Of a stretch of DNA of 64,000 nucleotides, positions 16,407 through 58,165 are shown in pieces; the first letter of the stretch is position 1; each line of letters begins with the position of its first letter. The notes beneath the pieces are model-generated. The model did no database searches. It was not told where the DNA came from and saw only the letters and a program-made list of their open reading frames with translations. This DNA is from a plasmid, in the sequence record CP121101.1; one strand, 5' to 3'. The position numbers and the translations under genes are program-made.

Positions 16407-16481
16407 GGCTTGTTATGACTGTTTTTTTGTACAGTCTATGCCTCGGGCATCCAAGCAGCAAGCGCGTTACGCCGTGGGTCG

Positions 16482-18759: not shown

Positions 18760-18856
18760 GCCGCAGCAACCTTCATTTTTCGGTTTTGCGGCGTTCTCAT
18801 GAATCCTTTTGCTCTACGGGAGCGCCGCCAAATCCTTTGTTCAAGGAGATGGTTTC

Positions 18857-20116: not shown

Positions 20117-20380
20117 GAGAATGTGGCAAGCTATCGCCCAACAAATCGCTGCAGCCGACCCAAAACCGCTACGCGGTTTCGGTCGGCTGAGCTCAGGCGT
20201 TAGGCCTCGCCGAAGCGAAAGATCGCTACTTGAAGTGTTGACGCCTTTGTTTTAAAGTTTCGCGTCTATCTTTCTGATTTTGTTAAAAAATCAGACTTTG
20301 ATTAATCATGTTAGACGTCAGAGGTATTTTGACTTAAACGCCTCTGAGGTCGAATTAACGTTAGCCACCAAGAAGGTGCC

Positions 20381-38070: not shown

Positions 38071-38964
38071 TTAGCCACCCCTCAAGGTTGCCATCCACCG
38101 CTGTGCCTGCGCCACCAGTATCCCTCCGCCGGCGCTCTCCAGGATCGTCCGCACACTGCCGACCACGGCGCCAATCACTGACCATTTTGGGTTAGGGGAG
38201 GCGGCCTGGGCCTTGAGGGTATCCAGATCGGCCTGCAGCTCTGCACACGCCTCTCCCTGCAGTTGCCCTTGCGCGACCACCTGCTGCAGCCACGGCAACA
38301 AAGCCGCCAGCGCCTCGGACTTCTGCTCGCCTGTCACCGTCTGCTGTTGTTGGCCGCCGGGCGAGCCCAACATCATTTGACCTCCGATGACATCCCCCCC
38401 AATGAAAATATTGGTCACCGATTCCGCCTGCTTCTGCTCCTGGGTGGTAAAGCTCATCCCTTCACCTTGGATCCCCAACTCATCCAGATCGAGTGCCCAT
38501 TCAAGGACCTTAGTACGCACCGCACCGATCAAACGCTGGACCTGATTTGCTCCAAATCGAACTTGTGGTGCGATTGGCATTTTATAGAGAGCCGCTACCA
38601 TCTTCGATTGAGACGGGTCCATGGGCAACACTACATATTCTGTCCCTGAAGCCAATGGTTCCACTCCATCAATGGGATAATAGAAGGGACATGTTGTCAT
38701 CACCTCGTGAAGCTCTGCATTCAGGACCGGTAGCAGCACAAGACCTTTCCCCGGGTTAATGGCGTACAGTTGCCCCGTCAAAATCCGGTACTGAGGGATA
38801 ACAGCCGACTCTGGGTAGCCATCAAGTTCGTTTTTGATCCAGCTAACCCAGTCAGGCTGCTTGAGCTTACGTGCGGCCACCAGTGCGTTTCGCAGTAGAT
38901 CGGTTGTCTTGACTTCGGGATTACTGGCTATGGTGATGAGCTGAGGGATAAGGGCGGGCATCAA
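38071..38964 (-). CDS. Array paralog U8: AbiTii-like N-terminal domain protein with conserved Gln-rich/glycine-zipper C-terminus (297 aa, intact)
   Basis: N-terminus MPALIPQLITIASNPEVKTTDLLRNALVAARKLKQPDWVSWIKNELDGYP; C-terminus ...GQQQQTVTGEQKSEALAALLPWLQQVVAQGQLQGEACAEL...KWSVIGAVVGSVRTILESAGGGILVAQA. Confidence 0.7.
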   Translation of the reverse strand: MMPALIPQLITIASNPEVKTTDLLRNALVAARKLKQPDWVSWIKNELDGYPESAVIPQYRILTGQLYAINPGKGLVLLPVLNAELHEVMTTCPFYYPIDGVEPLASGTEYVVLPMDPSQSKMVAALYKMPIAPQVRFGANQVQRLIGAVRTKVLEWALDLDELGIQGEGMSFTTQEQKQAESVTNIFIGGDVIGGQMMLGSPGGQQQQTVTGEQKSEALAALLPWLQQVVAQGQLQGEACAELQADLDTLKAQAASPNPKWSVIGAVVGSVRTILESAGGGILVAQAQRWMATLRGG

Positions 38965-39203
38965 TGCGCTCCTGGGCGATATTGGGCCCTATTGTACCCG
39001 GGTTCGGTGGTTTGGATTGCAGGATTGCAAGCGGCAGGATCCCGGCCGCCCTCATGGCCAGCGGTTGGCTCACGTTGACCGGTCACCCAGCCGGCAAACG
39101 CGGCAGTTTACCCGTTCCGCAGGTGCTGCTAGAACCAACGCAAAACGACAAAAAATGCGGAGCTAAATGCTAAACGGTGATCCTCACTGGGTTGGTTGGT
39201 ATA

Positions 39204-39219
39204 CTGTGTTTTTATACAG
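39204..39219 (+). promoter_or_regulatory. LexA (SOS) box CTGTgtttttatACAG upstream of umuD
   Basis: Match to the gamma-proteobacterial CTGT-N8-ACAG consensus 10 bp upstream of the umuD start. Confidence 0.75.
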
Positions 39220-39228
39220 CAACCAGAG

Positions 39229-39660
39229 ATGACCAGCATGTTTGCTCAACCCGCCCCTAATGCTCCCTTGCTGGAGATCCCCCTGTTTCTCTCCCCTGTA
39301 GCCTGCGGCTTTCCGTCCCCGGCGCAGGATTACACCGAGCAAACCATAGACCTTAATCTGCTGTGCGTGGCGCACCCGGCGGCCACCTACTTTGTGCGGG
39401 CGGCCGGTGACAGTATGGTCGACCACGGGATCCGCGATGGCGACCTGCTGGTCGTGGACCGCAGTCGCAAGGCGCGCCACGGTAGCGTGGTGGTCGCCGC
39501 GGTCGATGGTGAGTTCACCGTGAAGCAGCTGCAGCTTGATCCCACTGTGGCCTTGCTCCCTGGCAACCCGGCCTATCGGCCTATCCATTTCAGTGAGGGG
39601 CAGGAGCTGGAAATCTTCGGGGTGGTGTCCTTTATCGTGCATCAGGTGGATGCCCCATGA
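39229..39660 (+). CDS. umuD: UmuD, LexA-like self-cleaving subunit of DNA polymerase V (143 aa)
   Basis: [10 protein letters not shown]...[25 protein letters not shown]...; ATGA overlap with umuC. Confidence 0.85.
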
Positions 39661-40936
39661 ACAAGTGCTGCACCGTCGCCCTGGTGGACGTGAACAACTT
39701 CTACGCTAGCTGCGAGCGGCTGTTTCGGCCCGACCTTAAGGGGCGGCCAATAGTCGTGCTCTCGAACAACGATGGCTGCGTGGTAGCCCGTTCGGCAGAG
39801 GCCAAAGCGCTCGGCATCAAGATGGGAGTGCCGTACTTTCAGATCCGTCAATTCTTCGAGGCTATGGGCGGGGTCTGGTTTTCCAGCAATTATGCCCTTT
39901 ATGGCGACATGTCGAACCGGGTGATGACCATTTTGGAGGGGATGGCCCCGGCGGTGGAGGTCTACAGCGTTGACGAGGCCTTTATCGAGTGAGCGAACGC
40001 TGGGCGGGCGACTTGGTGGCCTATGGCCACCAAGTCCGCGAGCGGGTGCAGCAGTGGACCGGGCTGACCGTGGGGGTCGGCATCGGCCCCACCAAGACGC
40101 TCGCCAAGCTCGCCAACTACGCCGCCAAGAAGTGGCCCGCCACGGGCGGTGTGGTCGATCTGCGGGATGAAGGACGCCGCGTCAGGCTGATGGCGATCAC
40201 CCCGGTAGACGAGGTATGGGGTATTGGTCGGCGGCTCACCGCCAAGCTGGAGACCCAGGGCATCAAGACCGTGGCGGAACTGGTCGCCGCCGACCCCAAG
40301 AGCCTGCGCCGCCGCTATGGCGTGGTGGTCGAGCGCACGGTGCAGGAACTGCGGGGGATACCCTGCGCTGAGCTGGTGCAAGTGGCCCAGGCCAAACAGC
40401 AGATTATCTGCTCGCGTTCGTTTGGGGAGCGCATCACCCAGATCGGCCCCATGCATCAGGCTCTGGCGGGTTACATGGAGCGGGCCGCCGAGAAATTGCG
40501 AGGGGAGGGGATGTGCTGCCGCCATGTCACCCTGTTCATTCGCACCAGCCCATTCAGCGACCGGGAGCCCTATTACGGCAACCAGGTGAGCAGCAGGCTG
40601 GTCATGCCCACCCATGACACCCGGGCGCTGCTGGCTCTTATCCCCGAGCTACTCCCCCGCATCTGGCGTGACGAGCAGCGTTATCAGAAGGGAGGCGTGA
40701 TGCTGGCCGACTTCACCCCCGCCAACATGCAACAGGGCGACCTGTTCGCAGCTGAGCTGCAATCTCCGCGCAGTGAGGCGCTGATGCAGGTCATCGACAA
40801 GATCAATCAGGGGAGGCTTGGTAAAGTCTTCTTCGCGGCCCGAGGCCAAGAGAACAGAGAATGGATGATGAAGCGAGAGCAGTTGAGCCCTCGTTATACC
40901 ACTGCCCTACATGAATTGCCGATCGCAATGACATAA
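39657..40936 (+). CDS. umuC: UmuC, Y-family DNA polymerase V catalytic subunit; apparent frameshift near 39990 (ORFs 39657..39992 and 39989..40936)
   Basis: [46 protein letters not shown]...; combined ~425 aa. Confidence 0.85.
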
Positions 40937-41058
40937 CCATGATTTTGAGTGATGAGGGGAAAAACCATTCCACTAAAGATGAGTTATTTCCTCCTTCTTC
41001 GGCTGTTTTCCCAAAATGCAAAGCGGACTGTCGCCCCGCCCATGAATCCGGCTATCAA

Positions 41059-41936
41059 TCAGCTACCGGTCAAGATAGCCAGCCACCCCAGCGCTTGTGC
41101 CGAAAGCACTCCTCCGGCGCCTTCCAGGATCGCCCGCACACTGTTGGCCAAGGTTCCAATCAACGGCCAGCTCGGCGTGGGGGCGTCGGCCTGCGCCTGC
41201 AGGGCTGCATGCTTGGCCTGCAAATCGGCGTGTGCCGATACCGATAGCGTTCCCTCGGCGTTCACCTGCTGGAGCCAGGCCAGCAAGAAGACAGAGCATC
41301 GGTCTTTTGCTCGCCGGACACTGTCTGCTGTTGATGGCCCCCGGGCGAGTTCAGCTGAATTTGAACACCAGTCGCATTCCCTCCGATGTGTATGCTCACC
41401 GGCGCCACCTGCCGTTCTTGCGGAGTGACGCTCATGCTGTCCCCCTGAACACCGGAAGCGGCCAAAGCGAGTGCCCAGTCTAGCACCCGCTCCTGCACCG
41501 CCGCGATGAGGGCCCGCATCTGGACCGTCGGCATACAAATCTCCACCTCCCGTTCGGTACCGATTTCGGCCATCAGCAAGCTCATGAGCTCAGGGGGGAA
41601 TCGGACCCTCAGTGCTTTGCCGGTTGCGGCCAGCTCAGCCAGCTCGCTTGCGGGCAGCGAGAGCGGGCAAGTTTGCCACTGTACCGCCCGCTCGGTGTTG
41701 GCAACTGACAGCAAGTGGTGGGACCCTGCCTGCCAGTACGCCAGATTCCCGCGCCGCTGGCGATAACGGGGCACACCGCAGCCGTCAGGATAGCCCTGTA
41801 GCTCATGGTCAAGCCAGATGATTGCCTCGGGCTGTTGGAGCAGACGTGCCACCACCTTTGCCATGCGCAGCAACTTAGTGATTTCAACGTTCGGATCGCT
41901 GGCCAGGGTGATGAGTTCGGGAACATGGGCAGGCAT
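41059..41936 (-). CDS. Array paralog U7, AbiTii-like; apparent frameshift near 41280 (ORFs 41262..41936 and 41059..41538)
   Basis: MPAHVPELITLASDPNVEITKLLRMAKVVARLLQQPEAIIWLDHELQGYPDG...; conserved C-terminus in the second frame. Confidence 0.6.
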
Positions 41937-42029
41937 GGGGTGCTCCTGGGCAATAGTGGGGGCCTATTGTACCCGGTTTCGGTCGTGCGGGTTGTAGTGC
42001 TACAAGCGGAGAGGATCCGCTCCGGGTCA

Positions 42030-42058
42030 AAAAAAAGGGAGGCCGAAGCCTCCCTCCA
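42030..42058 (-). terminator. Rho-independent terminator (GGGAGGC-TTCG-GCCTCCC plus T8 on the minus strand)
   Basis: aaaaaaaagggaggccgaagcctccc read on the plus strand. Confidence 0.6.
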
Positions 42059-42498
42059 AAAAGTCACTTTTTGAACCAGTTTCACTGGCCTACGTGTAGG
42101 TGAAAGTGAAGAGAAATCTTCACTTGATACACGCAGATCAGCATCAAACCGCTAGCGATAATCATGCTTGATAGCATATCGATCTCCATATCAAATCAGG
42201 TGAATCCGTTCACCTGAGGGTTATTGGCCTCCTGGCTAGCCATAAGACTCGCTCTTGTGCCCGTGTTGACATTATACACCCTGCCCCCCAACATTTTTCA
42301 TAAATTCATGATAAATCATGTAGATAATATATAATTCTCACGCTGGTATCACTCGCCCCCAATACTTGACCAGCCCTGTTTATCTACGAAGTATTCCCCG
42401 CGTCCACAATATGGGCTGCACCAGTTGATCTGGCTTGTATCTCGCAACGCCACCCGCCGCACGAAGAAAACGTGGCCTGCTGCCTCTGCCGGACTAGC

Positions 42499-43356
42499 TC
42501 AGTGGCCGTTAAGGGTTGCCAGCCACTTCAGCACCAGTTCGCTCAGAACCCCGCCGCCGGCTCCTTCCAGAATCGCCGCAACAGTGCTGGCCACCGCAGC
42601 GATCACCGGCCATTTCCACTTGGGGGCGGCGGTCTGGGCCTTGATAGTATCCAGCTCGCTCTGAAGCACATTGCCGTTTGCCAGCTGCAGTGGCTTCTCC
42701 TGCGCCACCCCAGGCTGGTCCGTAGCCTTCTGCCCGCCGGTGATGGTTTGCTGTTGCTGGCCCCCGGGCGAGCTCACCATCAGTTGACCACCGTTGAACC
42801 CGCCCTCGATGCGAATGGTAACCGGCGCCAGCGGCTGGGGCGAGGAGGGCATTTCGTCCCCCTCGATCCCGGCCTCAACCAAGTCGAGCACCCAGGTCAA
42901 CAGTTGGTCCCGGACCGCATCAACAAGTGCGCGGATCTGATTGCCGCCAACCACCCGTACCGGCTCCATTGAGATATTCAGGTCTTGCATCAGCATGGCC
43001 ATCATCTCCGGCGGGAGAACCATGCTCACATTTTTCCCGGGAATAGCCACGTCTTCCAACCCGCTGATGGGCTGACCAATGCTGCATGTCGAGACAGCTT
43101 CTGCGAATTCAGGGTGGTCGATGATGATGGGGATCAGCCCTCGAAAGGGATTCCGAGCTTTCAATTCACAGCGTATGACACGATAGGAGGGCAGCTTGGC
43201 ATCATCCGGATAGCCCCGCAGCTCATGGTCGATCCAGGTAGCCCACTCAGCCTGTTTTAGCATACGGGCGACCACCTTGGCCTTGCGGAGCAGATCGGTG
43301 GTCTTAACTGCCGGATCACCGGCCAGGGCAATCAGGTCAGATAGCGAGGTGGACAT
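42499..43356 (-). CDS. Array paralog U6, AbiTii-like (intact, ~285 aa)
   Basis: MSTSLSDLIALAGDPAVKTTDLLRKAKVVARMLKQAEWATWIDHELRGYPDD...KWKWPVIAAVASTVAAILEGAGGGVLSELVLKWLATLNGH. Confidence 0.7.
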   Translation of the reverse strand: MSTSLSDLIALAGDPAVKTTDLLRKAKVVARMLKQAEWATWIDHELRGYPDDAKLPSYRVIRCELKARNPFRGLIPIIIDHPEFAEAVSTCSIGQPISGLEDVAIPGKNVSMVLPPEMMAMLMQDLNISMEPVRVVGGNQIRALVDAVRDQLLTWVLDLVEAGIEGDEMPSSPQPLAPVTIRIEGGFNGGQLMVSSPGGQQQQTITGGQKATDQPGVAQEKPLQLANGNVLQSELDTIKAQTAAPKWKWPVIAAVASTVAAILEGAGGGVLSELVLKWLATLNGH

Positions 43357-43535
43357 CGAGGTGCTCCTGGGCGACAAGGGAGGTCCAGTGTACCCGATCT
43401 GGCCCGGTCAGTTGCAACGCTGCAAGCGGGTCGGATACAGCCGGTCCGCTCTGGCTGGATTTGAGCTTGGCTTTGTCCGTTGGCCCCAGTATGCAAAGCG
43501 GGGCCGCAGCCCCGCTCATACCCCGACGATAGCGA

Positions 43536-44410
43536 TCAGCCGCCGCTCAAGCTGGCCAGCCACTTCAGCACCAGCTCGCTCAGCACCCCGCCGCCGGCGC
43601 CTTGCAGCACGGCCAGCACGCTACTACCGGCCAGCACGACGATCAGCGGCCATTTCCGCTTGGCGGTGGCGGCCTGGGGCTTGAGGGTGTTCTGCTCGCT
43701 CTGCCGCGTGTCGCGGTCTGCCGGCTGCCGTGGTGCATCCGCGCTCCCCTGCGCCAACCCGGACGGGCCCGCGGCCTTCTGCTCGCCGGTGACGGTTTGC
43801 TGTTGCTGGCCTCCCGGCGAGCTCACCATGACTTGGCCACCGTGGAACCCGCCCTCGATGTGAACGGTCACCGGCGCCAACGGCTGGGGTGGGGAGGGCA
43901 TCCCGTCCCCCTCGATCCCGGCCTTGGCCAGCTCGAGTGCCCAGTCCAACACCTTGTCACGGACTTGAGCTACGACGGCCTCAGTTGGGATGCGTCCAGT
44001 TGATGCACGACCTGGTACTGATCGCGGGCTTTCGCTGACAAGCCATCGTAAACGCGATGCCCAGAGGGGAGTTGCACATAGAGGGTGCCTTGTGACCCCA
44101 GCGCCTCCAACTTGCTGATCGAATCAAAACAGAGGTGAGCCTGAGCGGGAATCTCACCGTCAGTTTGGAACGTAAACAGATCAGTCAATTCGCCTGTCTG
44201 GACATCCCGCAGGTACACCGGGGCACGGATAAAACGGTATAGAGGAAGAGGATCTGACTCACGGTAGCCCCGCAGCTCCAGGTCGATCCAGGCTAACTGG
44301 TCGGATAGCTGGCACCGGTGGGCGATCACCTTGGCCTTGCGCAGCAGATCGGCTGTCTTGACGGCCGGATCGCTGGCCTGGGCGATGAGTTCAGGGAGTG
44401 GGGCGGGCAT
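43536..44410 (-). CDS. Array paralog U5, AbiTii-like; apparent frameshift near 43952..43970
   Basis: MPAPLPELIAQASDPAVKTADLLRKAKVIAHRCQLSDQLAWIDLELRGY...; conserved C-terminus in the 43536..43952 frame. Confidence 0.6.
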
Positions 44411-44587
44411 CCAGGCGCTCCTAGGCGACAAAAGAGCCCCAGTGTACCCGATTTGGCCTGCGCGATTGCAGCGCTGCAAGCGCGGGGCGGACCCCGCTCG
44501 CCCTCGCTGACCCGATTGGGGGTGGGCTTTGGCCGCTGACCAAGAAAGCAAAGCGGGGCCGCAGCCCCGCCCATGCCCCGATACCGC

Positions 44588-45489
44588 TCAGCTACCGGTC
44601 AAGGTTGCTAGCCACCCCATCGCCTGCGCCGCCAGCACTCCGCCGCCAGCGCCTTCCAGAATTGCCCGCACACTCCCGGCCACGGCACCGATCACCGGCC
44701 ATTTGGGGTTGTGGGAGGCAGCCTGGGCCTTGAGCGTATCCATCTCGACCTGCAGCTCCGCGCACATCTCCCGCTGCAGTTGCCCTTGTGCGATCACCTG
44801 CGCCAGCCACGGCAACAATGCCGCCAGGGCGGCCTCTTTCTGCGCACTTGTCACCGTCTGCTGTTGTTGGCCACCGGGCGAGTCCTGCATAAACTGAAAA
44901 CCGGTCGCATTCCCCCCGATGTGAATGTTCACCGGCGCTAGCTGCTTGGCCTGCTGCTGTTCCTGTGGGGTGAAACTCATGCTTCCCCCTGGATCCCTGC
45001 ATCAGCCAGGTCAAGCGCCCAGCCAAGCACCTTGTCTCTGATCAGTTCAAGGAGTCCGCGCAGTTGGCTGGTTGCCAGTACGACCTCCGGTGTCATTGGC
45101 ATATCCCCCTGCATTGCCATAATTTCCGCAGCAACGTTTGGAGGAAACAAGTACCTGACAATCCCATGCTCAGCGGTCGCCAACACTTCCAGCTCGCCGA
45201 CCGGTTTGACAAACCGACAGGTTGATAATGATTCGATCAGCCCCGGAGAGTCGGACATAAGCGGGATCAGTCCCCGAATGGGATTTCTTACCTTCAATTC
45301 TCCCCGTAGCAACCGGTAGGGCGGTAACTCAACACCATCGGGATAGCCCTGCAGCTCATAGTTGATCCAGGCAGCCCATTCCGGCTGCTTTAGCTGACGT
45401 GCGGCCACCCATGCCTTGCGTAGCAGGTCGGCGGTCTTGATGGTCGGATCGCTGGCCATGGCGATGAGTTCAGGGATAAGGGCGGGCAT
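44588..45489 (-). CDS. Array paralog U4, AbiTii-like; apparent 1-nt homopolymer deletion at ~44978 (QGEA* then MSFTPQ)
   Basis: MPALIPELIAMASDPTIKTADLLRKAWVAARQLKQPEWAAWINYELQGYPDG...; C-terminus in ORF 44588..44980. Confidence 0.65.
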
Positions 45490-45665
45490 TGATGCGTTCC
45501 TGGGCAAAATGGGAGCCCCCATTGTACCCGTTTTCGGTCGTGCGGATTGCAGTGCTGCAAACGGCAGGATCCCGGCTCCTCGCTGGCCCGATTTTGGGCG
45601 GGCTTGAGCCGCTGACCAAGAAAGCAAACGCCCCGCATAAGCAGGGCGTGATCTGGGCACCATCG

Positions 45666-45944
45666 TTACAGGCCGTACTGGCCCACCTCGTGGATCCATT
45701 TTGTATCGTCATTGCCTGGCCGAGCCGCGGTATACCCTGCCCAACAGAAGAACAGCAGGGCGCCTATCACCAGCAACACCTGCACAACCGTGAACCCCGC
45801 TCTGGCGCCATAACGATTTTTTTTCAACGCATCCAGTATCCAGATCCCAGCGGCAACAAACAGCAGGATCAGCAGCGCTGTCATGCCCTCCTGTCTGATC
45901 CCCGCGATCAGCATCTTCAACGCATCCCAAACCCAAACCATCAT
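45666..45944 (-). CDS. Small two-helix membrane protein (~92 aa), paralog of 47193..47471
   Basis: MMVWVWDALKMLIAGIRQEGMTALLILLFVAAGIWILD...VQVLLVIGALLFFCWAGYTA; followed by a hairpin terminator. Confidence 0.55.
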   Translation of the reverse strand: MMVWVWDALKMLIAGIRQEGMTALLILLFVAAGIWILDALKKNRYGARAGFTVVQVLLVIGALLFFCWAGYTAARPGNDDTKWIHEVGQYGL

Positions 45945-46111
45945 GTCACCCTCCAGAACTACCAAGCCACGCCGTTTAGCGCAAAATATACTGTATCCAT
46001 ATACAGTCTCGCAAGCGTACCATGCCGCCCCGCTCGAGCGCACCACCGACCATCCTCCCTTGTCGAGTGAGCGGCGGGATCAGCGCAGCGCGGCAGCCGT
46101 CCCCCGCGCTA

Positions 46112-47013
46112 TCAGCTGCCGCTCAAGGTGGCCAGCCAGCCCAGCGCCTGCGCCGCCAACACTCCACCGCCGGCGCCTTCCAGCACCACCCGCACACTGC
46201 CGGCCACGGCGCCGATCACCGGCCATTTTGGGTTAGGGGAGGCGGCCTGGGCCTTGAGGGTGTCCAGTTCGGCCTGCAACTCAGCACACGCCTCTCCCTG
46301 CAACTGCCCTTGCGCGATCACCTGCTGCAGCCACGGCAACAAGGCAGCCAGCGCCTCGGCCTTCTGCTCGCCTGTCGCTGTCTGCTGTTGCTGGCCGCCG
46401 GGCGAGCTCTGCATGAACTGAAAACCGGTCGCATTCCCCCCGATGTGAATGTTCACCGGCGCCAGCTGCTGGGCTTGCTGCTGCTGCTCCTGGGGGGTAA
46501 AGCTCATCCCGTCCCCCTGGATCCCTGCATCAGCCAAGTCAAGCGCCCAAGTCAGCAGCTTGTCTCGGACCGCCTCAATAAGCCCACGAACTTGGTTTGA
46601 CCCCAAGGCGAGTTCTGGCACCCCTGGCAGTGAAAGCTCTTGTATCAGAAATTGGCTCTGTTCGGGGGTGAAGAACGAACGAACAACTTCACCAGGTACA
46701 GCCAGGTCCTCCAAGGCCCCCATCGGATGACCAAACCGGGATTCCGTTATTAACCTGTTCATCTCGGCATTCCTAATTGGCAATGGAAGCCTCCCATGAC
46801 CAGGCACATCGACTTTGAGCTCACCTTGCAGCACACGGTAGGGCGGTAAATCCCCGGACTGCGGATAGCCTTGCAGTTCATGGTCTATCCAGGTGGCCCA
46901 CTCGGGCTGCTTGAGCAAGCGGGCGGCCACCATAGCCTTGCGCAGCAGGTCGGTAGTTTTGACGGTCGGATCGCTGGCCATGGCGCGATCAGCTCGGGGA
47001 TAAGGGCGGGCAT
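46112..47013 (-). CDS. Array paralog U3, AbiTii-like; 2-nt insertion near 46985 disrupts the first 10 codons; alternative start at MASDPTVKT
   Basis: ...ELIA|MASDPTVKTTDLLRKAMVAARLLKQPEWATWIDHELQGYPQSGDLPPYRVLQGELKV...; conserved C-terminus. Confidence 0.65.
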
Positions 47014-47192
47014 CGGGTGCTCCTAGGGGTCGACAAGGGGGGCCCATTGTACCCGGTTTGGCCCTGTCGATTGCAGCGCTGCGAGCGGGGCGGACCCCGC
47101 TCGCCCTCGCTGACCCGATTGGGGGCGGGCTTTGGCCGCTTACCAAGAAAGCAAACGCCCTGCATAAGCAGGGCGTGATCTGGGCACCATCG

Positions 47193-47471
47193 TTACAGGC
47201 CGTACTGGCCCACCTCGTGGATCCATTTTGTATCGTCATCGCTTGGCCGAGTCGCTGTATACCCTGCCCAACAGAAGAACAGCAGGGCGCCTATCACCAG
47301 CAACACCTGCACAACCATGAACCCCGCGCCGGCGCCATAACGATTATTTTTCAACTTCTCCAGTATCCCGATCCCAGCGGCAACTAACAGCACGATCAAC
47401 AGCGCTGTCATACCCTCCTGTCTGATCCCCGCTATCAGCATCCTCAACGCATCCCAAACCCAATCCATCAT
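47193..47471 (-). CDS. Small two-helix membrane protein (~92 aa), paralog of 45666..45944
   Basis: MMDWVWDALRMLIAGIRQEGMTALLIVLLVAAGIGILEKLKNNRYGAGAGFMVVQVLLVIGALLFFCWAGYTA. Confidence 0.55.
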   Translation of the reverse strand: MMDWVWDALRMLIAGIRQEGMTALLIVLLVAAGIGILEKLKNNRYGAGAGFMVVQVLLVIGALLFFCWAGYTATRPSDDDTKWIHEVGQYGL

Positions 47472-47762
47472 GTCACCCTCCAGAACAACAACCAGGCCGC
47501 ACCGTTGTGCGCAAAGCACTGTATCCATATACAGTCTCTTTAGCGTACCATGCCGCCACGCACGAGCGCACCACCGACCATCACTCCTTCGTCGAGTGAG
47601 CGGCGGGATCAGCGCTGGGCGGTAAGGGATGGCATCGGTTCGCCATCGCGCACCCACCAGCCGGCAAGCACAGCGCGGCAGTGTCCTTTTGCCCTTGGCT
47701 TTGGCCGTTGGCCCGGAAAACAAAGCGGGGCCGCAGCCCCGCTCATACCACGACGATAGCGA

Positions 47763-48643
47763 TCAGCCGCCGCTCAAGCTGGCCAGCCACTTCAGCACCA
47801 GCTCGCTCAGCACCCCGCCGCCGGCGCCTTGCAGCACGGCCAGCAGGCTACTACCGGCCAGCACGACGATCAGCGGCCATTTCCGCTTGGCGGTGGCGAC
47901 CTGGGGCTTGAGGCTGTCCTGCTCGCGCTGCCGCGTGTCGAGGTCTGCCGGCTGCCGTGGTGCATCCGTGCTCCCCTGCGCCAACCCGGACCCGGACGGG
48001 CCCGCGGCCTTCTGCTCGCCGGTAACTGTTTGCTGTTGCTGACCTCCCGGCGAGCTCACCATGACTTGGCCACCGTGGAACCCGCCCTCGATGTGAAAGG
48101 TCACCGGCGCCAACGGCTGAGGTGGGGAGGGCATCTTGTCCTCCTCGATCCCGGCCTCGGCCAGGTCGAGTGCCCTGCTCAGCAGCTTGTCCCGCACGGC
48201 ATCGATAAGGCCTCGTACCTGGTTAACCCCCAGCACCCGCTCCGGCACCCTCGAGATCCGCAGTGCCTGCATCATCTCGACGGCCACATCTGCAGCAAAG
48301 CAAAAACTCAGGGGTTTCCCTGGTATCACCGCCTCTTCCAGCGGGCCAACAGGCTGGCCACACCGGCACCAGGTATAAAGGTAGGCCACCTGGGGATCAT
48401 CAAACTGGATCGGGATCAGCCTACGCGCGGAGTCTCTGGCCATCAGCTCACACCGCATCTGGCGGTAGGGTGGCAACTCTACCTCGGATAGCCCTGCAGC
48501 TCATACCCGATCCAGGTAGCCCACTCGGGTTGCTTGAGCCGGCGGGCGACCACCAGGGCCTTGCGCAGCAGATCGGCGGTCTTGACGGTCGGATCGCTGG
48601 CCAGGGCGATCAGGTCAGATAGCGGGGTGGGCATCGAGGTGCT
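47763..48643 (-). pseudogene. Array paralog U2, AbiTii-like; frame broken after ...ELQGYPR* near 48480 and resuming at ORF 47763..48476
   Basis: MPTPLSDLIALASDPTVKTADLLRKALVVARRLKQPEWATWIGYELQGYP then a stop; the rest is in another frame. Confidence 0.5.
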
Positions 48644-48837
48644 CCAGGGCGACAAGGGAGGCCCAGTGTACCCGATTTGTCACGGTTGATTGCAGCGCTG
48701 CAAGCGGCAGGATCCCGGTCCCTCGCGGTGTCGGATTTGGGGCGGGCTTTTGCCGCTGACCAAGAAAGTAAAAGCCCCGCAGGGCGGGGCAATGTGTGAC
48801 GGCAAGGCCGGTGATCACGGTCGGGGCGGGGGGGCAG

Positions 48838-49122
48838 TCACCTGACCTTGTGGAAGATGATGAGGATCAGGGGGACGCAGATCAGGAAGCCCAGGGAGGC
48901 CGCGTCAAACACCACGCCGGTGGCTTGCATCACCGCGTCCATCATGGCGCGGTGATACTCCAACGAGACGGGGCCAGTCCCGATCACGCTCTCCTTCTCA
49001 GCAATGTGCCCGAAGCTGGTAGAAGCCACCCCCAGCCAGAGGTAATAGCCCAGGGAAACCAGCGCAATGCCGGCCCAACGTAACACGGTTTTACTCTTAC
49101 TTGCTGATATGACTTTATCCAT
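48838..49122 (-). CDS. Small membrane protein (94 aa)
   Basis: Two hydrophobic helices: GIALVSLGYYLWLGVAS and GFLICVPLILIIF. Confidence 0.45.
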   Translation of the reverse strand: MDKVISASKSKTVLRWAGIALVSLGYYLWLGVASTSFGHIAEKESVIGTGPVSLEYHRAMMDAVMQATGVVFDAASLGFLICVPLILIIFHKVR

Positions 49123-49225
49123 CTAGTCGTCCATCCACCGCGCCACCGGAATACGGTTTCCGCCATCCACACGACACCTTTCAGAATAATCACAGCGAAA
49201 AATAGTACCGCTATATATTATGTCA

Positions 49226-49516
49226 TCACTTATTGCCGCCCATGTTACTATATTTAGTTTTTCTATTTTCGACCCACCTCACAACTAATAAATATGAAAA
49301 GTAAAGCGCGGCGAATGAAATCACTGAGCCAAAATAAAGAAAATAAATCATGTCGTACACGCCATTGACTAGGCGGCTATACTCAGTGCCAATTAAATCA
49401 AACTCTAATCCATATTTTATATTGACCAATACGAGAACCAATATTGCGCTCATGATTATAAAATGAATCACAAAGGGCATTGCCACCCCTGTTATTTTAA
49501 GGATTTTCTTAATCAT
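49226..49516 (-). CDS. Small polytopic membrane protein (96 aa) in a low-GC island; candidate immunity protein
   Basis: AT-rich; starts immediately downstream of the toxin-like gene. Confidence 0.45.
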   Translation of the reverse strand: MIKKILKITGVAMPFVIHFIIMSAILVLVLVNIKYGLEFDLIGTEYSRLVNGVYDMIYFLYFGSVISFAALYFSYLLVVRWVENRKTKYSNMGGNK

Positions 49517-50429
49517 TGCTGCTACCTAATGAACCACCAAATGTCCCTGGGGAAACGCCACTTGAGCTGCCACCTGCAGCACCGGAACTATTGCCGGAGG
49601 AACCAAGGGTTTCTCCAATAGGTCCTGCACTCTTCATTGGCGATAAGCCCTCACCGTTCGGGATGGCTGTCTTCATAGCCGAAGTCACCTCAACTACAAG
49701 CATGTCAGAGCTTGAGGCTAGCTGTGACAGGTGGCGTTCGAGTGATGACGGTATGACGAAGTCCTCTGTGTACGTGTTCCCTATCGGCCCGTTGACAGTG
49801 AAGACGCTTGTCCCTGCCAGCTTCAACGCATCAACGGAAGTCGTTGTGCAGTTACTACCAGTTAGATCGTATTTATTTATCACTCTGCCAGTTTCTTTTA
49901 TTTTATCTTTTTCTGGTTGAGTGGAACTGGAAAGCCATTTTCTTTGGAATATTGCCAACGTCAAATTTTTCTCATCTACATCCATGATTTTAAATGCTCT
50001 CGCATTCATGCTATATAGTTCGTGTTGATAATACTCCCGAGCTTTTGCAAAGCCATATTGAATAAGTACGCCGTCACCGACAGGGGATACAGGATTACCA
50101 TCAAATCGACCGTATGTGTATACGTGCATACTCCACTCTTTGTGGACTGAAATAAAGGCGTGCCCGGTTCCCTTTGTTTCAGTCCACAGAAATACACCGT
50201 TTGCTAAAATATCTCGTGGATTTTCGCAAATTTCATTTGCTATCCAATGCCCTTTGTTCGTTTCAATTAAGGTGACGCTGCCACGATCATCAGATCGAAA
50301 GCTTGAGGTTTTCTCGCCTTCCCATTCGCTTTTACCCCAGCGCTGCCATCCACCATTCCACCACTGCCCACTTCTGCTCGGATCCACATTTCCTCCACAG
50401 CCTTGCTTCCCAAAAAACCATTGTGCCAT
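49509..50429 (-). CDS. Putative secreted or cytotoxic hydrolase-like protein (~306 aa) in a low-GC island, with a Gly/Ser-rich C-terminal tail
   Basis: Trp/Gly-rich N-region, TGHAFISVH and LTGSNCTTTSVDALK motifs weakly resembling papain-fold hydrolases, GSSGNSSGAAGGSSSG tail; GC far below the flanks. Confidence 0.4.
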   Translation of the reverse strand: MAQWFFGKQGCGGNVDPSRSGQWWNGGWQRWGKSEWEGEKTSSFRSDDRGSVTLIETNKGHWIANEICENPRDILANGVFLWTETKGTGHAFISVHKEWSMHVYTYGRFDGNPVSPVGDGVLIQYGFAKAREYYQHELYSMNARAFKIMDVDEKNLTLAIFQRKWLSSSTQPEKDKIKETGRVINKYDLTGSNCTTTSVDALKLAGTSVFTVNGPIGNTYTEDFVIPSSLERHLSQLASSSDMLVVEVTSAMKTAIPNGEGLSPMKSAGPIGETLGSSGNSSGAAGGSSSGVSPGTFGGSLGSSND

Positions 50430-50591
50430 GTATGGGTAATCCGACCAACCGAGCGGATACCCAGACAAGTCACCGTCTGTCCGTTGCCGTACTGCAACTG
50501 GGAGCAGCGCTAGGCGGTAAGCGAGGACATCGGTTCGCCATCGCACACCCGCCAGCAGGTAAGCGCAGAGCGGTAGCCCTCCCCCGCGCCA

Positions 50592-51488
50592 TCAGCTGCC
50601 GCTCAAGGTGGCCAGCCTGCCCAACACTGCTTCCGTCAGTACCCCGCTGCCGGCCCCTTCCAGGATCGCCCGCACACTGTTGGCCACGGCGCCGATCACC
50701 GGCCACTTGGGCTTAGGGGAGGCGGCCTGGGCCTTGAGGGTATCCAGCTCGGCCTGCAGCTCCGCACACGCTTCTCCCTGCAGTTGCCCTTGCGCGATCA
50801 CCTGTTGTAGCCACGGCAACAAGGCCGCCAGGGCAACTTCCTTCTGTTCAATCGTCACAGTCTGCTGTTGCTGACCGCCGGGCGAGTTTTGCATCAACTG
50901 AAGACCATGAGCATCTCCATTGATGTGAATGTGGGTTACCGGCGCCACCTGCTGGGCTTGCTGCCGCTCTTGAGAAGTGAAGCTCATGCCTTCCCCCAAG
51001 ATCCCCTCCTTTTCAAGCTGCAGTGCCCAATTCAAAACCTGATTTCTGACCGCCCCCAAGATCCGGTTCATGCTGGCCAACGTGAACCGACGAAGAGGGG
51101 TACAGTTCGTATCACATGCCGCCCGCAAGGCATCAGCTTCGCGCGGGGAAAATTGCATATGAATATCGTCAGATTCAGCACACCACCCCTCAATCTCGTC
51201 AACAGGCGTGTCAAAGTGGCAGAGTTGCCATCGAAATGCGGCCTCTGCAGACGGAAAGACCACCCCCTTCAGTCCATGGTGCCCATCGATCAGGACTTCT
51301 CCTTGTACATGCCGATAGACTGGGATGGCATCATCCGGCCCGTATCCATTGAGCTCGTGTCCAAGCCAGGTAACCCACTCGGGCAACTGCAGGCGGTGGG
51401 CCGCCACTAGGGCGCGGCGTAGCAGATCAGCGGTTTTAACGGCCGGATCGTTGGCCAGGGCAATCAGTTCGGGGATGAGTGCGGGCAT
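50592..51488 (-). CDS. Array paralog U1, AbiTii-like (298 aa, intact)
   Basis: MPALIPELIALANDPAVKTADLLRRALVAAHRLQLPEWVTWLGHELNGYGPDD...GGQQQQTVTIEQKEVALAALLPWLQQVIAQGQLQGEACAELQAELDTLKAQAASPKPKWPVIGAVANSVRAILEGAGSG. Confidence 0.7.
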   Translation of the reverse strand: MPALIPELIALANDPAVKTADLLRRALVAAHRLQLPEWVTWLGHELNGYGPDDAIPVYRHVQGEVLIDGHHGLKGVVFPSAEAAFRWQLCHFDTPVDEIEGWCAESDDIHMQFSPREADALRAACDTNCTPLRRFTLASMNRILGAVRNQVLNWALQLEKEGILGEGMSFTSQERQQAQQVAPVTHIHINGDAHGLQLMQNSPGGQQQQTVTIEQKEVALAALLPWLQQVIAQGQLQGEACAELQAELDTLKAQAASPKPKWPVIGAVANSVRAILEGAGSGVLTEAVLGRLATLSGS

Positions 51489-51985
51489 GGACGTGCTCCT
51501 AAGCGATATTAGGCCCCCATTGTACTCGGTTTCGGTAGTTTGGATTGCAGGGCTGCAAACGGCAGGATCCCGCTCGTCCTCAATGGCCGGTTTTTCAAAT
51601 CCCTCTTACTGCTATTAGCGTCTGGTGTACCATTCACGGGAGCAAACACCGCCATCCGGTTCGAACACCCCCATATGGCCAGATAGCCACGCACGGTGAA
51701 GCTCTGTGCCAACAATCAGCCTCCTCAACCAACGTGGCCATAGATGTTGCTGATATCCCTCAAGATATGCCCACAGAAGAATCCGCTTACTCATTTTTTC
51801 CTTTCTCAACGAGGTTGAGTGCATGGTAGGAGATACCTGCTAACTCCCGCCACACACATCACAATCAGGTTCGCCCGGTAGTACGTCGCCGGCCGGGGTC
51901 TTGTGCGGGGCGTCTTGTTCGGCGGCATGGCTGCCGAACAACCGACCCAGGCGGTTAACAAGGGTCATCGGGTGCGTCGTCACCG

Positions 51986-52318
51986 TCATTGTCGCAAGAT
52001 CAGATGCCGATACAGGGCATCCTCGATGCTCTGGCGCTGGTGCAGCACCAGCAGGATATAGGCCGCATCGGGCAGCACACTGTAGAGCACCCGGTAGCCC
52101 TTCTGATCGATACGCTCGCGCACATCGAGGCCATAGTCAGCGGTCGCCGGGCACTGGCGATAGAGCAGGGGATTGGCACTGATCGCCGCCACGGCCTCGG
52201 TCAGCAACGTCTCCACCAGGACGGCGGCCTGCTCGGGCCCGCAGTGCACCGCATTGAAGGCTTCGATGTCCTGCAGGCAGGTCAGCGCGGTCGCGGTCAC
52301 GCGCACCGACAGCGTCAT
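51986..52318 (-). CDS. parE: Type II toxin, ParE/RelE family (110 aa)
   Basis: Size, position downstream of the antitoxin with overlap, and ParE-like sequence character. Confidence 0.5.
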   Translation of the reverse strand: MTLSVRVTATALTCLQDIEAFNAVHCGPEQAAVLVETLLTEAVAAISANPLLYRQCPATADYGLDVRERIDQKGYRVLYSVLPDAAYILLVLHQRQSIEDALYRHLILRQ

Positions 52319-52596
52319 GTGCGGGCCGCCCGCAGCAGGGCCAGGGCTTCATCCTCGCTGTAGCTGCGACCTGGCCGGCCAATGTCCTGGGTGGCCAGGG
52401 CGACCAGCTTGACCAGCGCCTTATCTTCCCGCGCCTGGTGCAGATCGGCCAGCTCTTGGGAGCGGTCGGCGGCGGTGGTGATAAACAACTCGGGGGTGCC
52501 GTTCTTTGTGACGTAGACCCCGCCGCTGAAATTCTCTGGAGTGCCCAACGCCTCGCGCGCGGCGCGCTGGGACATGGCTTTGACGACTTCTCTCAT
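52315..52596 (-). CDS. Type II antitoxin, Phd/YefM-ParD-like (~93 aa)
   Basis: MREVVKAMSQRAAREALGTPENFSGGVYVTKNGTPELFITT...; overlaps the toxin gene by 4 nt. Confidence 0.5.
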   Translation of the reverse strand: MREVVKAMSQRAAREALGTPENFSGGVYVTKNGTPELFITTAADRSQELADLHQAREDKALVKLVALATQDIGRPGRSYSEDEALALLRAART

Positions 52597-53371
52597 GGCG
52601 TTATCTCTTACTGGTGTCCGTGATGGGATCAGTATACCCCTGCCCGGAACGCAGCGGTACAAAATTGATTACCAATATTACCCACTAACCCGCCGTGCCG
52701 GTTGTAGGGCTGCAAGTGGCAGGATCCCGGCCCCTCGCTGGCCAGATTTGGGGCGGGCTTTGGCCGCTGACCAAGACTCCCAAATCCCCTTAGCCATCCC
52801 CTCACCACAACATATGGTGCCTTTGCAGCTGGCCGGGGACACTATATCTAGTGGATCTGGCGAGGATCTGCCCCGCGCCGCGCCCTTCCTGGCTCCCCCC
52901 GCGCTTTTGACTTTTCGCACTATCCGGTAAAACTCCCAAACCGGCGCCGGGCCGGCGCGGATTTATTGGCCCTGACAGCGGCCCCCGGATCTGGCATCCT
53001 GCCGATCACCGACTTCCCCCCCGCGACGAGGATCCCGATGCAGATCACCCCGCTTGGCCATGGCCACCCCCTGGCCACCCTGCACCAGGGCGGCCCCCTG
53101 GTGCGCCCCGTTATCCCTTGGCCCATAAAGTGCGGGTGGTGCTGGCCGATGGAACTGGCTGAAAGAGACAGAGGGGGAGGGATATAACATTGGTGGTGCT
53201 GACGCCGCGGTGCTGCTACAGGAAAACCCGCAATTTACGGGAAGGTGGAGTTGACGCTGGCCGGCACAGCCCACAGGATAGGGGACGCAAACAGCCCTCG
53301 CGTCAACGGCGCTCGGGGTTATCAAAATCACTTTTGAACAATCAATATCAACATTCGATGGAGTCCTTGCC

Positions 53372-54286
53372 ATGTTTGCCACCACTGTGCGCTTTATGAA
53401 GCATCAGCTGGGCCACCCCGCCCGCCTGAATGCCCTGCTGGCCACCGATCCCGCCCTGGGCTATGCCCTCGAGCTGCCCCCCTCTGTCAGTACCGACAGC
53501 ATCACTCGCTGGCACGAATGGCGACCAGCAGGCTGGAACGCCCAACCCGGCGAGCTGCGCGGCTGGGCACGGATCAATGGCCAATACCAGGGTCATGCCA
53601 TCCTGAACGGTGCGCTGGCCACCCTCTGCGAACAGGCACAATTTGAAGACTGGACGTGTGATATTCGCCAAGTGCAGGTGCTCTCTGCCTCCAAGAGCCC
53701 CCTCGAAGCCTTTGCCGATCTGGATGCCTTTGCCGAGGCCCGTTGCCGGGGCTACCTCGATGACGCCAGCTCCGACAACATCGCCCGCAACCTGGTCCAT
53801 GGCGAGGTCAGGATCATGCAACCGGGTCGCGGCGACTATTTTCTCTACCACGGCTGGGATGGCCGGCTCTGCCTCATCAACAGCGGCGGCAGTCACCACT
53901 TTGCCACCGCCCGTTACCTGGCCGGCGTCGCCCGCCAACCGGTCGAGCTCAAAGGGATGCTCAAGGGCTACCTGCTCAACCCTGCCGCCGTCACCGGCCT
54001 GACAGACGAATATGAGCTGTTCGCCATCACCCGGGATCCGCTGCTCTGGGATGAGTTGTTTGAGTCGATGCGTGCATTGCAGGCCACCTGGTTTGCCGGC
54101 GACTTACCCCGCCCTCACCGCGAGGGGCGGGCACTGCTGCTGCCCAGGGACGACCGCAATTCGATGAAGGTGGCCAGCGCCCTGCGCAAGGCCGGAGTGA
54201 CCGATCTAGGGAGTTACCTGCAGCGGCAAGTCCATCGCCAACATGACTATCCGGTCGGGGCGATCATGGCCGGTTGTCACGGGTAA
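53372..54286 (+). CDS. Hypothetical protein (304 aa)
   Basis: Long ORF with typical GC. Confidence 0.45.
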   Translation: MFATTVRFMKHQLGHPARLNALLATDPALGYALELPPSVSTDSITRWHEWRPAGWNAQPGELRGWARINGQYQGHAILNGALATLCEQAQFEDWTCDIRQVQVLSASKSPLEAFADLDAFAEARCRGYLDDASSDNIARNLVHGEVRIMQPGRGDYFLYHGWDGRLCLINSGGSHHFATARYLAGVARQPVELKGMLKGYLLNPAAVTGLTDEYELFAITRDPLLWDELFESMRALQATWFAGDLPRPHREGRALLLPRDDRNSMKVASALRKAGVTDLGSYLQRQVHRQHDYPVGAIMAGCHG

Positions 54287-57872: not shown

Positions 57873-58165
57873 AACTGTCCCCAATAGTGACCACATTTAG
57901 CCAATCGCGTATCGCGTAGCATCTCATTACACGCGACACGACACAACCCCAAGTCACCAGCACAGCGATAAATACAGCCGAAACCAAACCATAAAAGGAC
58001 TGGAGCGTCAAGATACCCCATCAAAAATACATAGCGCAATGAAATGTATATTCTATTGCGTTAAATCCCCAGTGGGGGTAGGATTCATTTTGTCGGTGTA
58101 ACCATCACTACACGACGACACTACCAAGCAAATGAGTGGGCTCATGACCATCAACCACGATATGG

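Follow-up and report, generated by a model that had tools for sequence, protein, structure and literature searches.

Which system is encoded by the tandem array of similar genes on the large, Aeromonas-type resistance plasmid of sequence record CP121101.1? Within the 64,000-nt stretch of this plasmid that was analyzed here (the window), eight paralogs of approximately 290-300 aa each, named U1 to U8, span positions 38071-51488 and are all co-oriented on the minus strand. As judged by homology, each of them combines in one polypeptide chain the two components of the abortive-infection system AbiT. We conclude with moderate confidence that the array represents a tandem family of recombining single-chain AbiT genes with a presumed anti-phage role, situated in a hotspot for accessory genes on large Aeromonas-type MOBH plasmids.

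An initial annotation of the same stretch had described nine paralogs of a candidate undescribed system. The tandem, co-oriented repeat stands where it was placed; however, the window holds eight copies, and a ninth is present only in sister plasmids.

Organization of the array

Each unit is a self-contained cassette composed of a terminator hairpin, a leader of ~130 nt and one open reading frame (ORF) of ~290-300 aa. The eight genes are listed below; tail types A and B refer to their C-terminal parts.

38071..38961, minus strand: U8, intact, 296 aa, tail type A; Pfam AbiTii E 2.8e-33 over aa 4-183, PADLOC AbiTii E 1.4e-33
41059..41936, minus strand: U7, tail type A; frameshift near codon 215 (~41290), stitched alignment
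42499..43356, minus strand: U6, intact, 285 aa, tail type B; Pfam AbiTii E 2.1e-33, PADLOC E 1.2e-35
43536..44410, minus strand: U5, tail type B; frame broken by a 1-nt deletion at 43982 relative to plasmid pAER-f909
44588..45489, minus strand: U4, tail type A; frame broken by a 1-nt deletion at 44982; 300 aa and intact in pAER-f909
46112..47013, minus strand: U3, tail type A; GC insertion at 46983; Pfam AbiTii E 2.5e-29; intact in pAER-f909
47763..48643, minus strand: U2, tail type B; frame broken by a 4-nt deletion at 48486
50592..51488, minus strand: U1, intact, 298 aa, tail type A; Pfam AbiTii E 5.1e-32; chosen for the structure model

In the window, only U8, U6 and U1 can each be read as one continuous ORF. 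According to three-frame translation, U7, U5, U4 and U2 contain one internal frame change each, and U3 has a frame change at codon ~10, with an alternative in-frame start at 46981. Five of the genes which the initial annotation had presented as whole are therefore frames stitched together without mention. U8 is parted from the other seven copies by umuDC, encoded on the plus strand.

The N-terminal AbiTii domain

The initial annotation had proposed AbiTii from the N-terminal sequence pattern. This assignment is confirmed by matches to both Pfam PF18864 and the PADLOC AbiTii model at E values of ~1e-30 to 1e-35. In detail, the four copies scanned (U8, U6, U3 and U1) match PF18864 at E 2.5e-29 to 2.1e-33, with scores of 103-117 bits against a cut-off of 27.6 bits and over profile positions 2-188, and the PADLOC model (PDLC02334) at E 3e-30 to 1e-35. 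Searches of NCBIfam and PHROGs gave no match for the paralogs.

The AbiTii domain covers residues ~2-183. Hence, the conserved N-terminus and what had been taken for a separate "hypervariable core" are parts of one AbiTii domain. According to Anantharaman et al. 2013 (PMC3710099), the domain is an alpha+beta globule in which one glutamate is highly conserved. The corresponding residue, E45, is invariant across 62 members of the family. The earlier defence reading, in which an N-terminal sensor is combined with an effector at the C-terminus, agrees with what has been published on AbiTii-domain proteins (PMC3710099).

The C-terminal AbiTi-like module

The second component was recognized in the tail. 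The C-terminal 133 aa of U1 match the PADLOC AbiTi profile at E 6e-4 over positions 4-111 of 114; the tails of U8 and U6, scanned alone, stay below significance. Over the family the match is far clearer: C-terminal segments of 13 of 22 diverse members cover approximately the whole 114-position profile (best E 2e-9), and farther relatives reach E 1.6e-11.

The family profile also retrieves loci from Lachnospiraceae and one planctomycete in which an AbiTii-only gene of ~203-231 aa lies right behind another gene. In Lachnospiraceae, the one downstream gene scanned (~203 aa) matches AbiTii at E 8e-51, and the C-termini of the two upstream genes scanned are AbiTi, with E 1e-46 to 1e-48. By these matches, the loci show the classical two-gene AbiT arrangement. 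A comparison of the tail profile with these AbiTi proteins by hhalign yielded E 1.7e-5 and 1e-4, and motifs common to both occur in the same order, namely NFYGxVxGxQIQQ and IHIxGxxxGxQxM, ENPSKIK and SPKPKW, and GVAGSxI and GAVAGSV.

Since the tail is homologous to AbiTi, each window protein is to be regarded as an AbiTii::AbiTi fusion, i.e., a single-chain AbiT. No AbiTi-like gene was found upstream of the units, which consist of one ORF in the order AbiTii, then AbiTi. This identifies them as a fused variant and not as a canonical AbiT operon. Neither a HEPN motif nor any other nuclease motif was detected in the family proteins.

The system is thus less novel than initially assumed: its protein is a fusion of two known AbiT components, and the family already carries the label "AbiTii domain-containing protein". 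Both this AbiTii annotation and the match to the PADLOC AbiTii model are prior knowledge. As far as we found, the recognition of the family as an AbiTii::AbiTi fusion and its recombining multi-copy arrays on Aeromonas plasmids are new. All plasmid records examined list the genes of the array as "hypothetical protein" only, and our literature searches found no description of such Aeromonas AbiT arrays or of an AbiTii::AbiTi fusion.

A short motif occurs in both proteins of the split Lachnospiraceae loci (L050 9343-10609, L054 7066-8326, L057 and L064). It reads NNYTNNFYxEVSDIDVxQG at the end of AbiTii and NNTNNFYGxVxGVQIQQG at the start of the AbiTi module. The fused proteobacterial proteins contain one copy (IHIxGxxxGxQxM), located within a segment that is disordered in the structure model described below. 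The motif may be an association interface of the two components or of fused monomers.

Predicted structure and hydropathy of the tail

For U1, an AlphaFold2 model was computed from a 62-sequence alignment (mean pLDDT 82.7). It places residues 1-178 in an alpha+beta domain, composed of three conserved N-terminal helices, a middle part of mixed sheet and helix, and a long conserved helix at 137-160. A Gln-rich linker (185-209) is disordered, and four C-terminal helices follow at 213-232, 239-256, 262-278 and 286-296. Residues ~210-298 are accordingly predicted to form a four-helix bundle homologous to AbiTi.

The tail had initially been interpreted as a membrane-disrupting glycine-zipper hydrophobic helix. 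In the model, this stretch corresponds to the last two helices of the predicted bundle, and its hydropathy does not reach the transmembrane threshold applied here, a 19-residue Kyte-Doolittle mean of at least 1.6. Maxima are 1.02-1.56 for the window tails and 0.7-1.2 for Burkholderiales relatives, compared to 1.66-2.08 for Lachnospiraceae AbiTi tails. Helix 262-278 is amphipathic, with a hydrophobic moment of 0.46, and the Burkholderiales relatives are clearly amphipathic as well. As the Lachnospiraceae AbiTi tails do exceed the threshold, membrane action of the tail is possible, but it has no support from a canonical transmembrane segment.

Variation, mosaicism and selection

The nine paralogs, including the copy U0 of the sister plasmids, align over their full length almost without gaps. 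Mean pairwise identity amounts to 60-70% at aa 1-50 and aa ~150-300, and to 20-30% at aa ~60-140. The central ~120 residues had been described as essentially unrelated between copies. Instead, the divergent core is ~90 residues long (aa ~52-140), aligns in register with almost no gaps and lies within the AbiTii profile. Alignable cores of ordinary divergence, which the initial annotation itself had named as an observation against its model, are largely what we find.

Proportions of synonymous (pS) and non-synonymous (pN) differences were averaged over the eight intact paralogs, leaving out U7. The values are pS 0.47 and pN 0.19 for aa 1-50, pS 0.71 (saturated) and pN 0.51 for the core, and pS 0.35 and pN 0.22 for the last ~75 codons. 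Saturation of synonymous sites between the cores indicates an old divergence, and it renders a test for positive selection uninformative there.

Individual pairs of copies show that the parts of the genes have separate histories. U5 and U2 share a 3' tract of 280 nt that is 96% identical at the DNA level (repeat family D12); pS between their tails is 0.00 and their cores are unrelated (pS 0.72). U2 and U0, on the other hand, have related cores (pS 0.23) and differing tail types. The paralogs are thus mosaics, in which cores and two tail types were reassorted by recombination.

Among orthologs of the same core type from different plasmids and species, pN/pS is 0.21 in the core, 0.26 in the N-terminus, 0.28 in the middle part and 0.36 in the tail. 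The core is therefore the most constrained region in this comparison; these orthologs are under purifying selection, and positive selection was not detected in their cores. The diversifying selection postulated by the initial annotation finds no support in these values or in the saturated sites of the paralogs.

Single-linkage grouping of the cores from 88 Aeromonas-type cluster representatives gives 12 groups at 50% identity, 21 at 60% and 25 at 70%; the N-termini form one group and the C-termini likewise. By inspection, the N-terminus is ~65% identical to Burkholderiales homologs. Such family-wide conservation argues for functional constraint in addition to any homogenization. The core types are old, stably maintained and reshuffled by recombination; ongoing diversifying selection is not demonstrable.

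Leaders and a common palindrome

A conserved leader of ~130 nt precedes every unit (nhmmer E 1e-24 to 1e-34). It comprises the palindrome TTGCAGnnCTGCAA, a -10-like hexamer (TACAAT or TACACT) and an AGGAG ribosome-binding site, followed by the ATG. Terminator-like hairpins are located just upstream of most leaders. Framed in this way, the units look like independent transcription cassettes.

38963..39090, minus strand: leader of U8, with a degenerate TTGCAGnnCTGCAA copy, TACAAT hexamer and AGGAG; nhmmer E 3.7e-28
41938..42062, minus strand: leader of U7, nhmmer E 8e-26; terminator-like hairpin 42057-42034
43358..43488, minus strand: leader of U6, nhmmer E 1.5e-28
44413..44547, minus strand: leader of U5, with a perfect TTGCAGCGCTGCAA palindrome at 44466-44479; terminator hairpin 44572-44551
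45491..45623, minus strand: leader of U4; terminator hairpin 45649-45628
47016..47150, minus strand: leader of U3; terminator hairpin 47176-47155
48644..48767, minus strand: leader of U2, with a perfect palindrome at 48690-48703; terminator hairpin 48790-48774
51490..51615, minus strand: leader of U1, nhmmer E 3.9e-31

The 14-nt palindrome has eight matches in the window at up to two mismatches, seven of them in leaders, where 0.75 are expected; thus, its repetition cannot be due to chance. It is not confined to AbiT genes: the first ~100 nt of the leader (5' end), up to and including the palindrome, are also found in front of a toxin-antitoxin operon, an ORF of 347 aa that is KfrA-like by the look of its N-terminal sequence, an ORF of 242 aa, and an ORF of 109 aa on plasmid pO23AP4. 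In 42 kb of tra backbone, the palindrome was not found except for one array-edge copy in the leader of U0. We consider it a candidate shared operator of a plasmid-wide regulator.

Further copies of TTGCAGnnCTGCAA were observed elsewhere. Plasmid pAsa8 has five at ~200-nt spacing (L066 21-993). In pO23AP4, copies at 453, 2584, 7140, 8371 and 18083 (L068) lie near repA, radC-region genes and small cargo genes.

Several known elements were compared with the leader, and none of them is supported. On inspection, a sigma-54 consensus does not fit. A single-strand promoter of leading regions (Frpo-like) would call for a conserved single-strand hairpin, which the leader lacks. The leader motif GCCCnAAAnCnGGnCAG resembles published AcaCD boxes, and the window encodes an AcaB regulator (810-1652). 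As an AcaCD/SetCD box it would nevertheless have a differing spacing, it lies ~56 nt from the -10-like hexamer, and it is not enriched upstream of tra genes in the 42-kb backbone; it is at most a tentative lead. A comparison with the operator of plasmid RA3 gave no match, and the operator sequence was not found in the paper on RA3 (PMC7414963).

Sister plasmids and the lost ninth copy

A region of 14.1 kb is 99.3% identical to Aeromonas sp. plasmid pAER-f909 (NZ_CP026221.1) and to Enterobacter cloacae plasmid pIncA_P7536 (CP071789.1), both of which have MOBH relaxases and replicon rep_cluster_1332. Both contain a segment of 2.5 kb that is missing from the window and encodes the ninth copy, U0, together with an ORF of 270 aa. 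In the sister-plasmid record L001, the segment extends over 18085-20577 and U0 over 19140-20036.

The trace of this segment in the window is the following element, noted initially as an orphan leader at ~52650..52790:

52693-52776, minus strand: "orphan leader", preceding the toxin-antitoxin operon and comprising ~85 nt from the 5' end of the leader module; nhmmer profile positions 4-89, E 5e-16

A leader module is indeed present there. Rather than a ninth copy in the window, it marks the junction of the 2.5-kb deletion that removed U0 and the 270-aa ORF.

Four of the five window frameshifts are missing from pAER-f909, in which U5, U4, U3 and U2 are intact. Relative to this plasmid, the window lacks 1 nt at 43982, 1 nt at 44982 and 4 nt at 48486, and it has an additional GC at 46983. 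U7, in contrast, is broken in all three near-identical plasmids, and the sister annotations (L001, L002) show a truncated coding sequence of 675 nt.

Small indels are not limited to the array. The loss of 1 nt at 39990 interrupts umuC. Compared to near-identical copies, from which they otherwise differ by one substitution in 2.8 kb, mrx(A) carries a duplicated CG at 29294-29295 and mph(A) one additional nt at 30287. The genes of the TraI_2 relaxase (3800-5598) and the tyrosine recombinase (55642-56482) appear to be split as well, the former over at least two ORFs and the latter over two that overlap. In conserved genes of the window, the indels are often tandem duplications of 2-15 nt or 1-nt deletions. 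Unlike the genes hit by indels, the mer operon shows no difference from an E. coli plasmid over 5.5 kb (100% identity). Since such indels are spread over the whole window, the frameshifts are not to be read as decay specific to AbiT genes. They may be sequence or assembly errors, or else the plasmid is unusually mutated.

A resistance region with TnAs1, mph(A) and mer is inserted beside U8, and the same TnAs1 insertion truncates U8 in pAER-f909.

Distribution of the family and the cargo hotspot

The ~300-aa architecture is present in Aeromonas, Burkholderiales, Pseudomonas, Vibrio and others. A word-indexed search gave 286 matches. With the tail profile, 1839 representatives were retrieved after clustering at 50%; almost all are proteins of ~300 aa in which the tail occupies ~166-295. 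With one genome per species, the gene is single-copy within ±10 kb in all genera except Aeromonas. No conserved neighbour gene was found around the single-copy homologs.

In PLSDB, 69 plasmids carry the family. Large Aeromonas-type plasmids have it at 2-12 places per record, all others at one. None of 50,697 phage records contains a member.

On rep_cluster_1332/MOBH plasmids, the array is always located between umuDC and a block composed of a DUF6685 gene, a tyrosine recombinase gene and a KfrA-like gene, and its content varies. These flanks are found in the window as follows.

39238..40936, plus strand: umuD-umuC (error-prone polymerase V genes), conserved hotspot flank, after the annotation of the sister plasmids (L001, L002)
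53372..54286, plus strand: DUF6685 protein, Pfam E 1.6e-54, outer hotspot flank in three plasmid backbones (L001, L067, L068, L069)
~55642-56760, minus strand: tyrosine recombinase, outer-edge block
56757-57896, minus strand: KfrA_N-domain protein, outer-edge block

In pAsa8 (MOBF) the array lies beside umuD. pO23AP4 (MPF_F) has the umuDC, recombinase and DUF6685 flanks and no AbiT copy. Flanks of the same kind enclosing varying content, even content devoid of AbiT, define a cargo hotspot. DUF6685 and a tyrosine recombinase flank the hotspot on pO23AP4 too, whose backbone is unrelated.

Genes between the copies

The genes interspersed with the AbiT copies had been interpreted as copy-specific partners. 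In the window they are:

45666..45944, minus strand: 92-aa protein downstream of U3 that contains two hydrophobic segments; repeated at 47193-47471 (repeat family D10)
47193..47471, minus strand: second copy of the 92-aa gene with two predicted transmembrane segments (2-TM), downstream of U2
48838..50546, minus strand: cargo insert of three ORFs, one coding for up to 345 aa and rich in Gly/Ser at its C-terminus, the others for hydrophobic proteins of 96 aa and 94 aa
51986-52318, minus strand: ParE-family toxin, Pfam ParE_toxin E 3.1e-8
52315-52596, minus strand: antitoxin of ParE, PHROG antitoxin E 4.3e-5

The two 92-aa copies are ~85% identical (86% and 85% at the protein level), and their DNA is 93% identical over 300 nt. 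In A. rivuli and pAsa8, homologs of this 2-TM gene are found behind different AbiT types, and pO23AP4 has one in the absence of any AbiT copy. The toxin-antitoxin cassette has its own copy of the leader's 5' module. The U1 ortholog of pAsa8 is followed by a DUF2235 gene, not by the 345-aa ORF found downstream of U1 in the window. The genes between the copies are therefore independent cargo rather than partners of particular copies.

No terminator was called between either 92-aa gene and its preceding AbiT gene, so the two may be co-transcribed. The insert at 48838-50546, which does not belong to the AbiT family, is low in GC (~50% compared to ~60% around it), and its ORFs have no match in Pfam, PADLOC, NCBIfam or PHROG. 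A relative with 38% identity lies in a similar position, beside AbiT copies, in the A. rivuli array. In the same hotspot of other plasmids, DUF2235 and DUF2931 genes give a hint of effector/immunity-type cargo.

The AT-rich spacer of ~560 nt between U7 and U6 (41937-42498) contains a 35-codon ORF at 42082-42189 on the minus strand, encoding the hydrophobic peptide MEIDMLSSMIIASGLMLICVYQVKISLHFHLHVGQ. It is followed by the strong terminator hairpin 42057-42034 and is reminiscent of a type I toxin.

Comparison with known systems

AbiT of Lactococcus lactis (PMC13064643) resembles the present genes in that AbiTii and AbiTi-like modules are both present and both systems are plasmid-borne. There, however, abiTi is a separate gene upstream of abiTii and both genes are required, whereas here one polypeptide unites the modules in reverse order. 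The window genes are moreover amplified into a polymorphic array. Compared to the window proteins, the Firmicute AbiTi proteins examined have a more hydrophobic tail.

The AbiTii-HEPN fusions of the c2405 and Ymh families (PMC3710099) have the same N-terminal AbiTii domain of ~180 aa with its glutamate and follow the same logic of an N-terminal domain plus a C-terminal effector. Their C-terminal part is a HEPN RNase, whereas a small helical AbiTi-like bundle is predicted here.

The tail also resembles PDC-M14B of PADLOC, where PDC presumably stands for "phage defence candidate". The C-terminal ~100 residues of the PDC-M14B profiles are matched by the tail module in 16 of the 22 family members (best E 1e-12), and the C-terminus of U8 matches PDC-M14B as well, but the N-terminal profile positions ~1-145 were not covered by any match. 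No PDC-M14A partner was found among 10 proteins scanned. As PDC-M14 requires A and B in full length, and only the C-terminal ~100 positions of B are matched, we do not assign the array to it. Literature searches for PDC-M14 found no paper.

Two more distant parallels concern the organization of the locus. In clusters of immune receptors, such as plant NLR/R genes and bacterial Avs/STAND proteins, conserved signalling ends are combined with variable recognition domains. By analogy, the array consists of tandem paralogs with a variable, presumed recognition part, a conserved, presumed effector and recombination between copies. The window proteins are, however, far smaller and have no NTPase domain, and no positive selection was detected. 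In kil-kor regulons of IncP-1 and IncU plasmids, the palindromic operator of one repressor precedes many operons. The 14-nt palindrome would be comparable, as it recurs before numerous genes for cargo and maintenance functions, a kfrA-like gene among them, and lies near repA and by the toxin-antitoxin operon.

Proposed function and alternative explanations

Homology with AbiT suggests an anti-phage function by abortive infection. Under the single-chain AbiT reading, the proteins would act as abortive-infection sensor and effector in one chain, and the divergent middle sub-domain would determine which phage component is recognized. In the lactococcal system, phages that escape AbiT are mutated in the major capsid protein and in early genes (PMC13064643). 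Upon recognition, the AbiTi module might be released or oligomerized and lead to arrest or death of the cell. Membrane action by small-residue-rich amphipathic helices would be the most likely mode of the effector, although we propose it with low confidence; with equally low confidence, toxicity by membrane action or oligomerization is ranked above a nuclease role. A set of 8-12 types per plasmid would provide wider phage coverage, and the common palindrome could place all units and the neighbouring cargo under one regulator.

Several observations speak against this proposal. The tails of the window proteins themselves match AbiTi weakly and the match is convincing only over the family; tail hydropathy is below the transmembrane threshold and the modelled bundle is soluble, which makes membrane action speculative; five of the eight copies are frameshifted in the window. 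The leader contains a good -10-like hexamer but no canonical -35, and a simple sigma-70 scan did not call it. Its 5' module is common to plasmid-maintenance genes, with the palindrome also near repA, which would fit plasmid housekeeping as well. Finally, the defence role is derived from homology to lactococcal AbiT, itself without known mechanism.

A more far-reaching version of the AbiT reading, which we put forward tentatively, sees the array as a bacterial counterpart of immune-receptor clusters, i.e., a co-regulated battery of up to a dozen single-chain AbiT sensors. Their recognition sub-domains and two tail types would be reassorted by homologous recombination in the conserved leader/N-terminal and tail sequences, so that repertoires of phage specificity arise and pass from plasmid to plasmid.

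Among other explanations, the genes could serve establishment of the plasmid or competition, as host-toxic "kil"-type functions that are held by a common repressor at the palindrome and act in maintenance, exclusion of rivals or early establishment. The leader's 5' ~100 nt with the palindrome in front of the ParE operon, the KfrA-like gene and other cargo, the palindromes near repA and radC-region genes of pO23AP4 and the five copies in pAsa8 are consistent with it, as are the co-orientation of all units and the presence of gene types typical of leading or maintenance regions (umuDC, toxin-antitoxin, kfrA). But it is an abortive-infection system that defines the families of both domains, the gene in other genera is mostly chromosomal, present in one copy and outside a plasmid context, the leader lacks the conserved single-strand hairpin of leading-region promoters, and no regulator was identified; on balance, we regard this explanation as unlikely. 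It is quite improbable that the copies are neutral or decaying duplicates in a recombination-prone hotspot, with many pseudogenes and no current selected function. The five frameshifted copies, with U7 broken in all three near-identical plasmids, the loss of a copy through a 2.5-kb deletion between leader repeats, and the widely differing array content among plasmids would agree with decay. Yet orthologs of the same core type are under purifying selection in every region of the gene (pN/pS 0.21-0.36), four of the five frameshifts are absent from pAER-f909, and similar indels in mrx(A), mph(A), umuC, traI and the recombinase gene point to a property of this sequence, not of the AbiT genes.

An integron-like array, in which the leaders are attC-type sites for the nearby tyrosine recombinase, would account for co-oriented cassettes parted by a conserved repeat, for the recombinase at the array boundary in several plasmids and for a deletion junction within the repeat, although homologous recombination explains the deletion equally well. 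We consider it highly improbable, given that the leaders have no inverted R''/R' core sites and no common single-strand hairpin (z-scores +0.3 to -3.9, with differing structures), and that the repeat lies 5' of each gene and has promoter-like and ribosome-binding features. Moreover, the recombinase gene is co-oriented with the array, with DUF6685 in between, rather than divergent with an attI, and Rfam finds only the class 1 attI at 16496-16562. A polymorphic toxin or secreted effector with cognate immunity genes, the alternative raised in the initial annotation, has scarcely any probability left. It would suit an array of variable paralogs interspersed with small membrane proteins, and the DUF2235 and DUF2931 genes in the same hotspot of other plasmids, but the domain architecture largely refutes it: the variable part is central and not a C-terminal toxin tip, both termini are conserved, no signal peptide, secretion trafficking domain or Pfam toxin domain was found, and no immunity-like gene consistently follows each copy.

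Returning to the single-chain AbiT reading, its consequences reach beyond this plasmid. To our knowledge, AbiT has been known since 2002, i.e., for over twenty years, without a mechanism. The proteobacterial fusion speaks for AbiTi and AbiTii working together as a single physical unit, and it places AbiTi at the effector end. The arrays represent natural experiments, with the same tail on different cores and the same core on different tails, which could separate recognition from killing. If the counterpart of immune-receptor clusters holds true, these natural chimeras would be a direct handle on sensing and killing by AbiT. Provided that the genes are functional, multidrug-resistance plasmids moving between Aeromonas and Enterobacteriaceae, as exemplified by pIncA_P7536 of Enterobacter cloacae, carry a multi-specificity defence battery; phage defence of this kind on such plasmids would bear on phage therapy and aquaculture.

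Other features of the window

Outside the hotspot, a transcriptional regulator of the AcaB family is encoded at 810-1652 on the minus strand (Pfam E 4.8e-38) and a Ter/Tus replication-terminus protein at 9236-9853 on the minus strand. A class 1 integron extends over 15393-16562, with a 337-aa ORF (15393-16406) at the position expected for intI1 and an Rfam match to attI/AAC_AAD_leader at 16496-16562.

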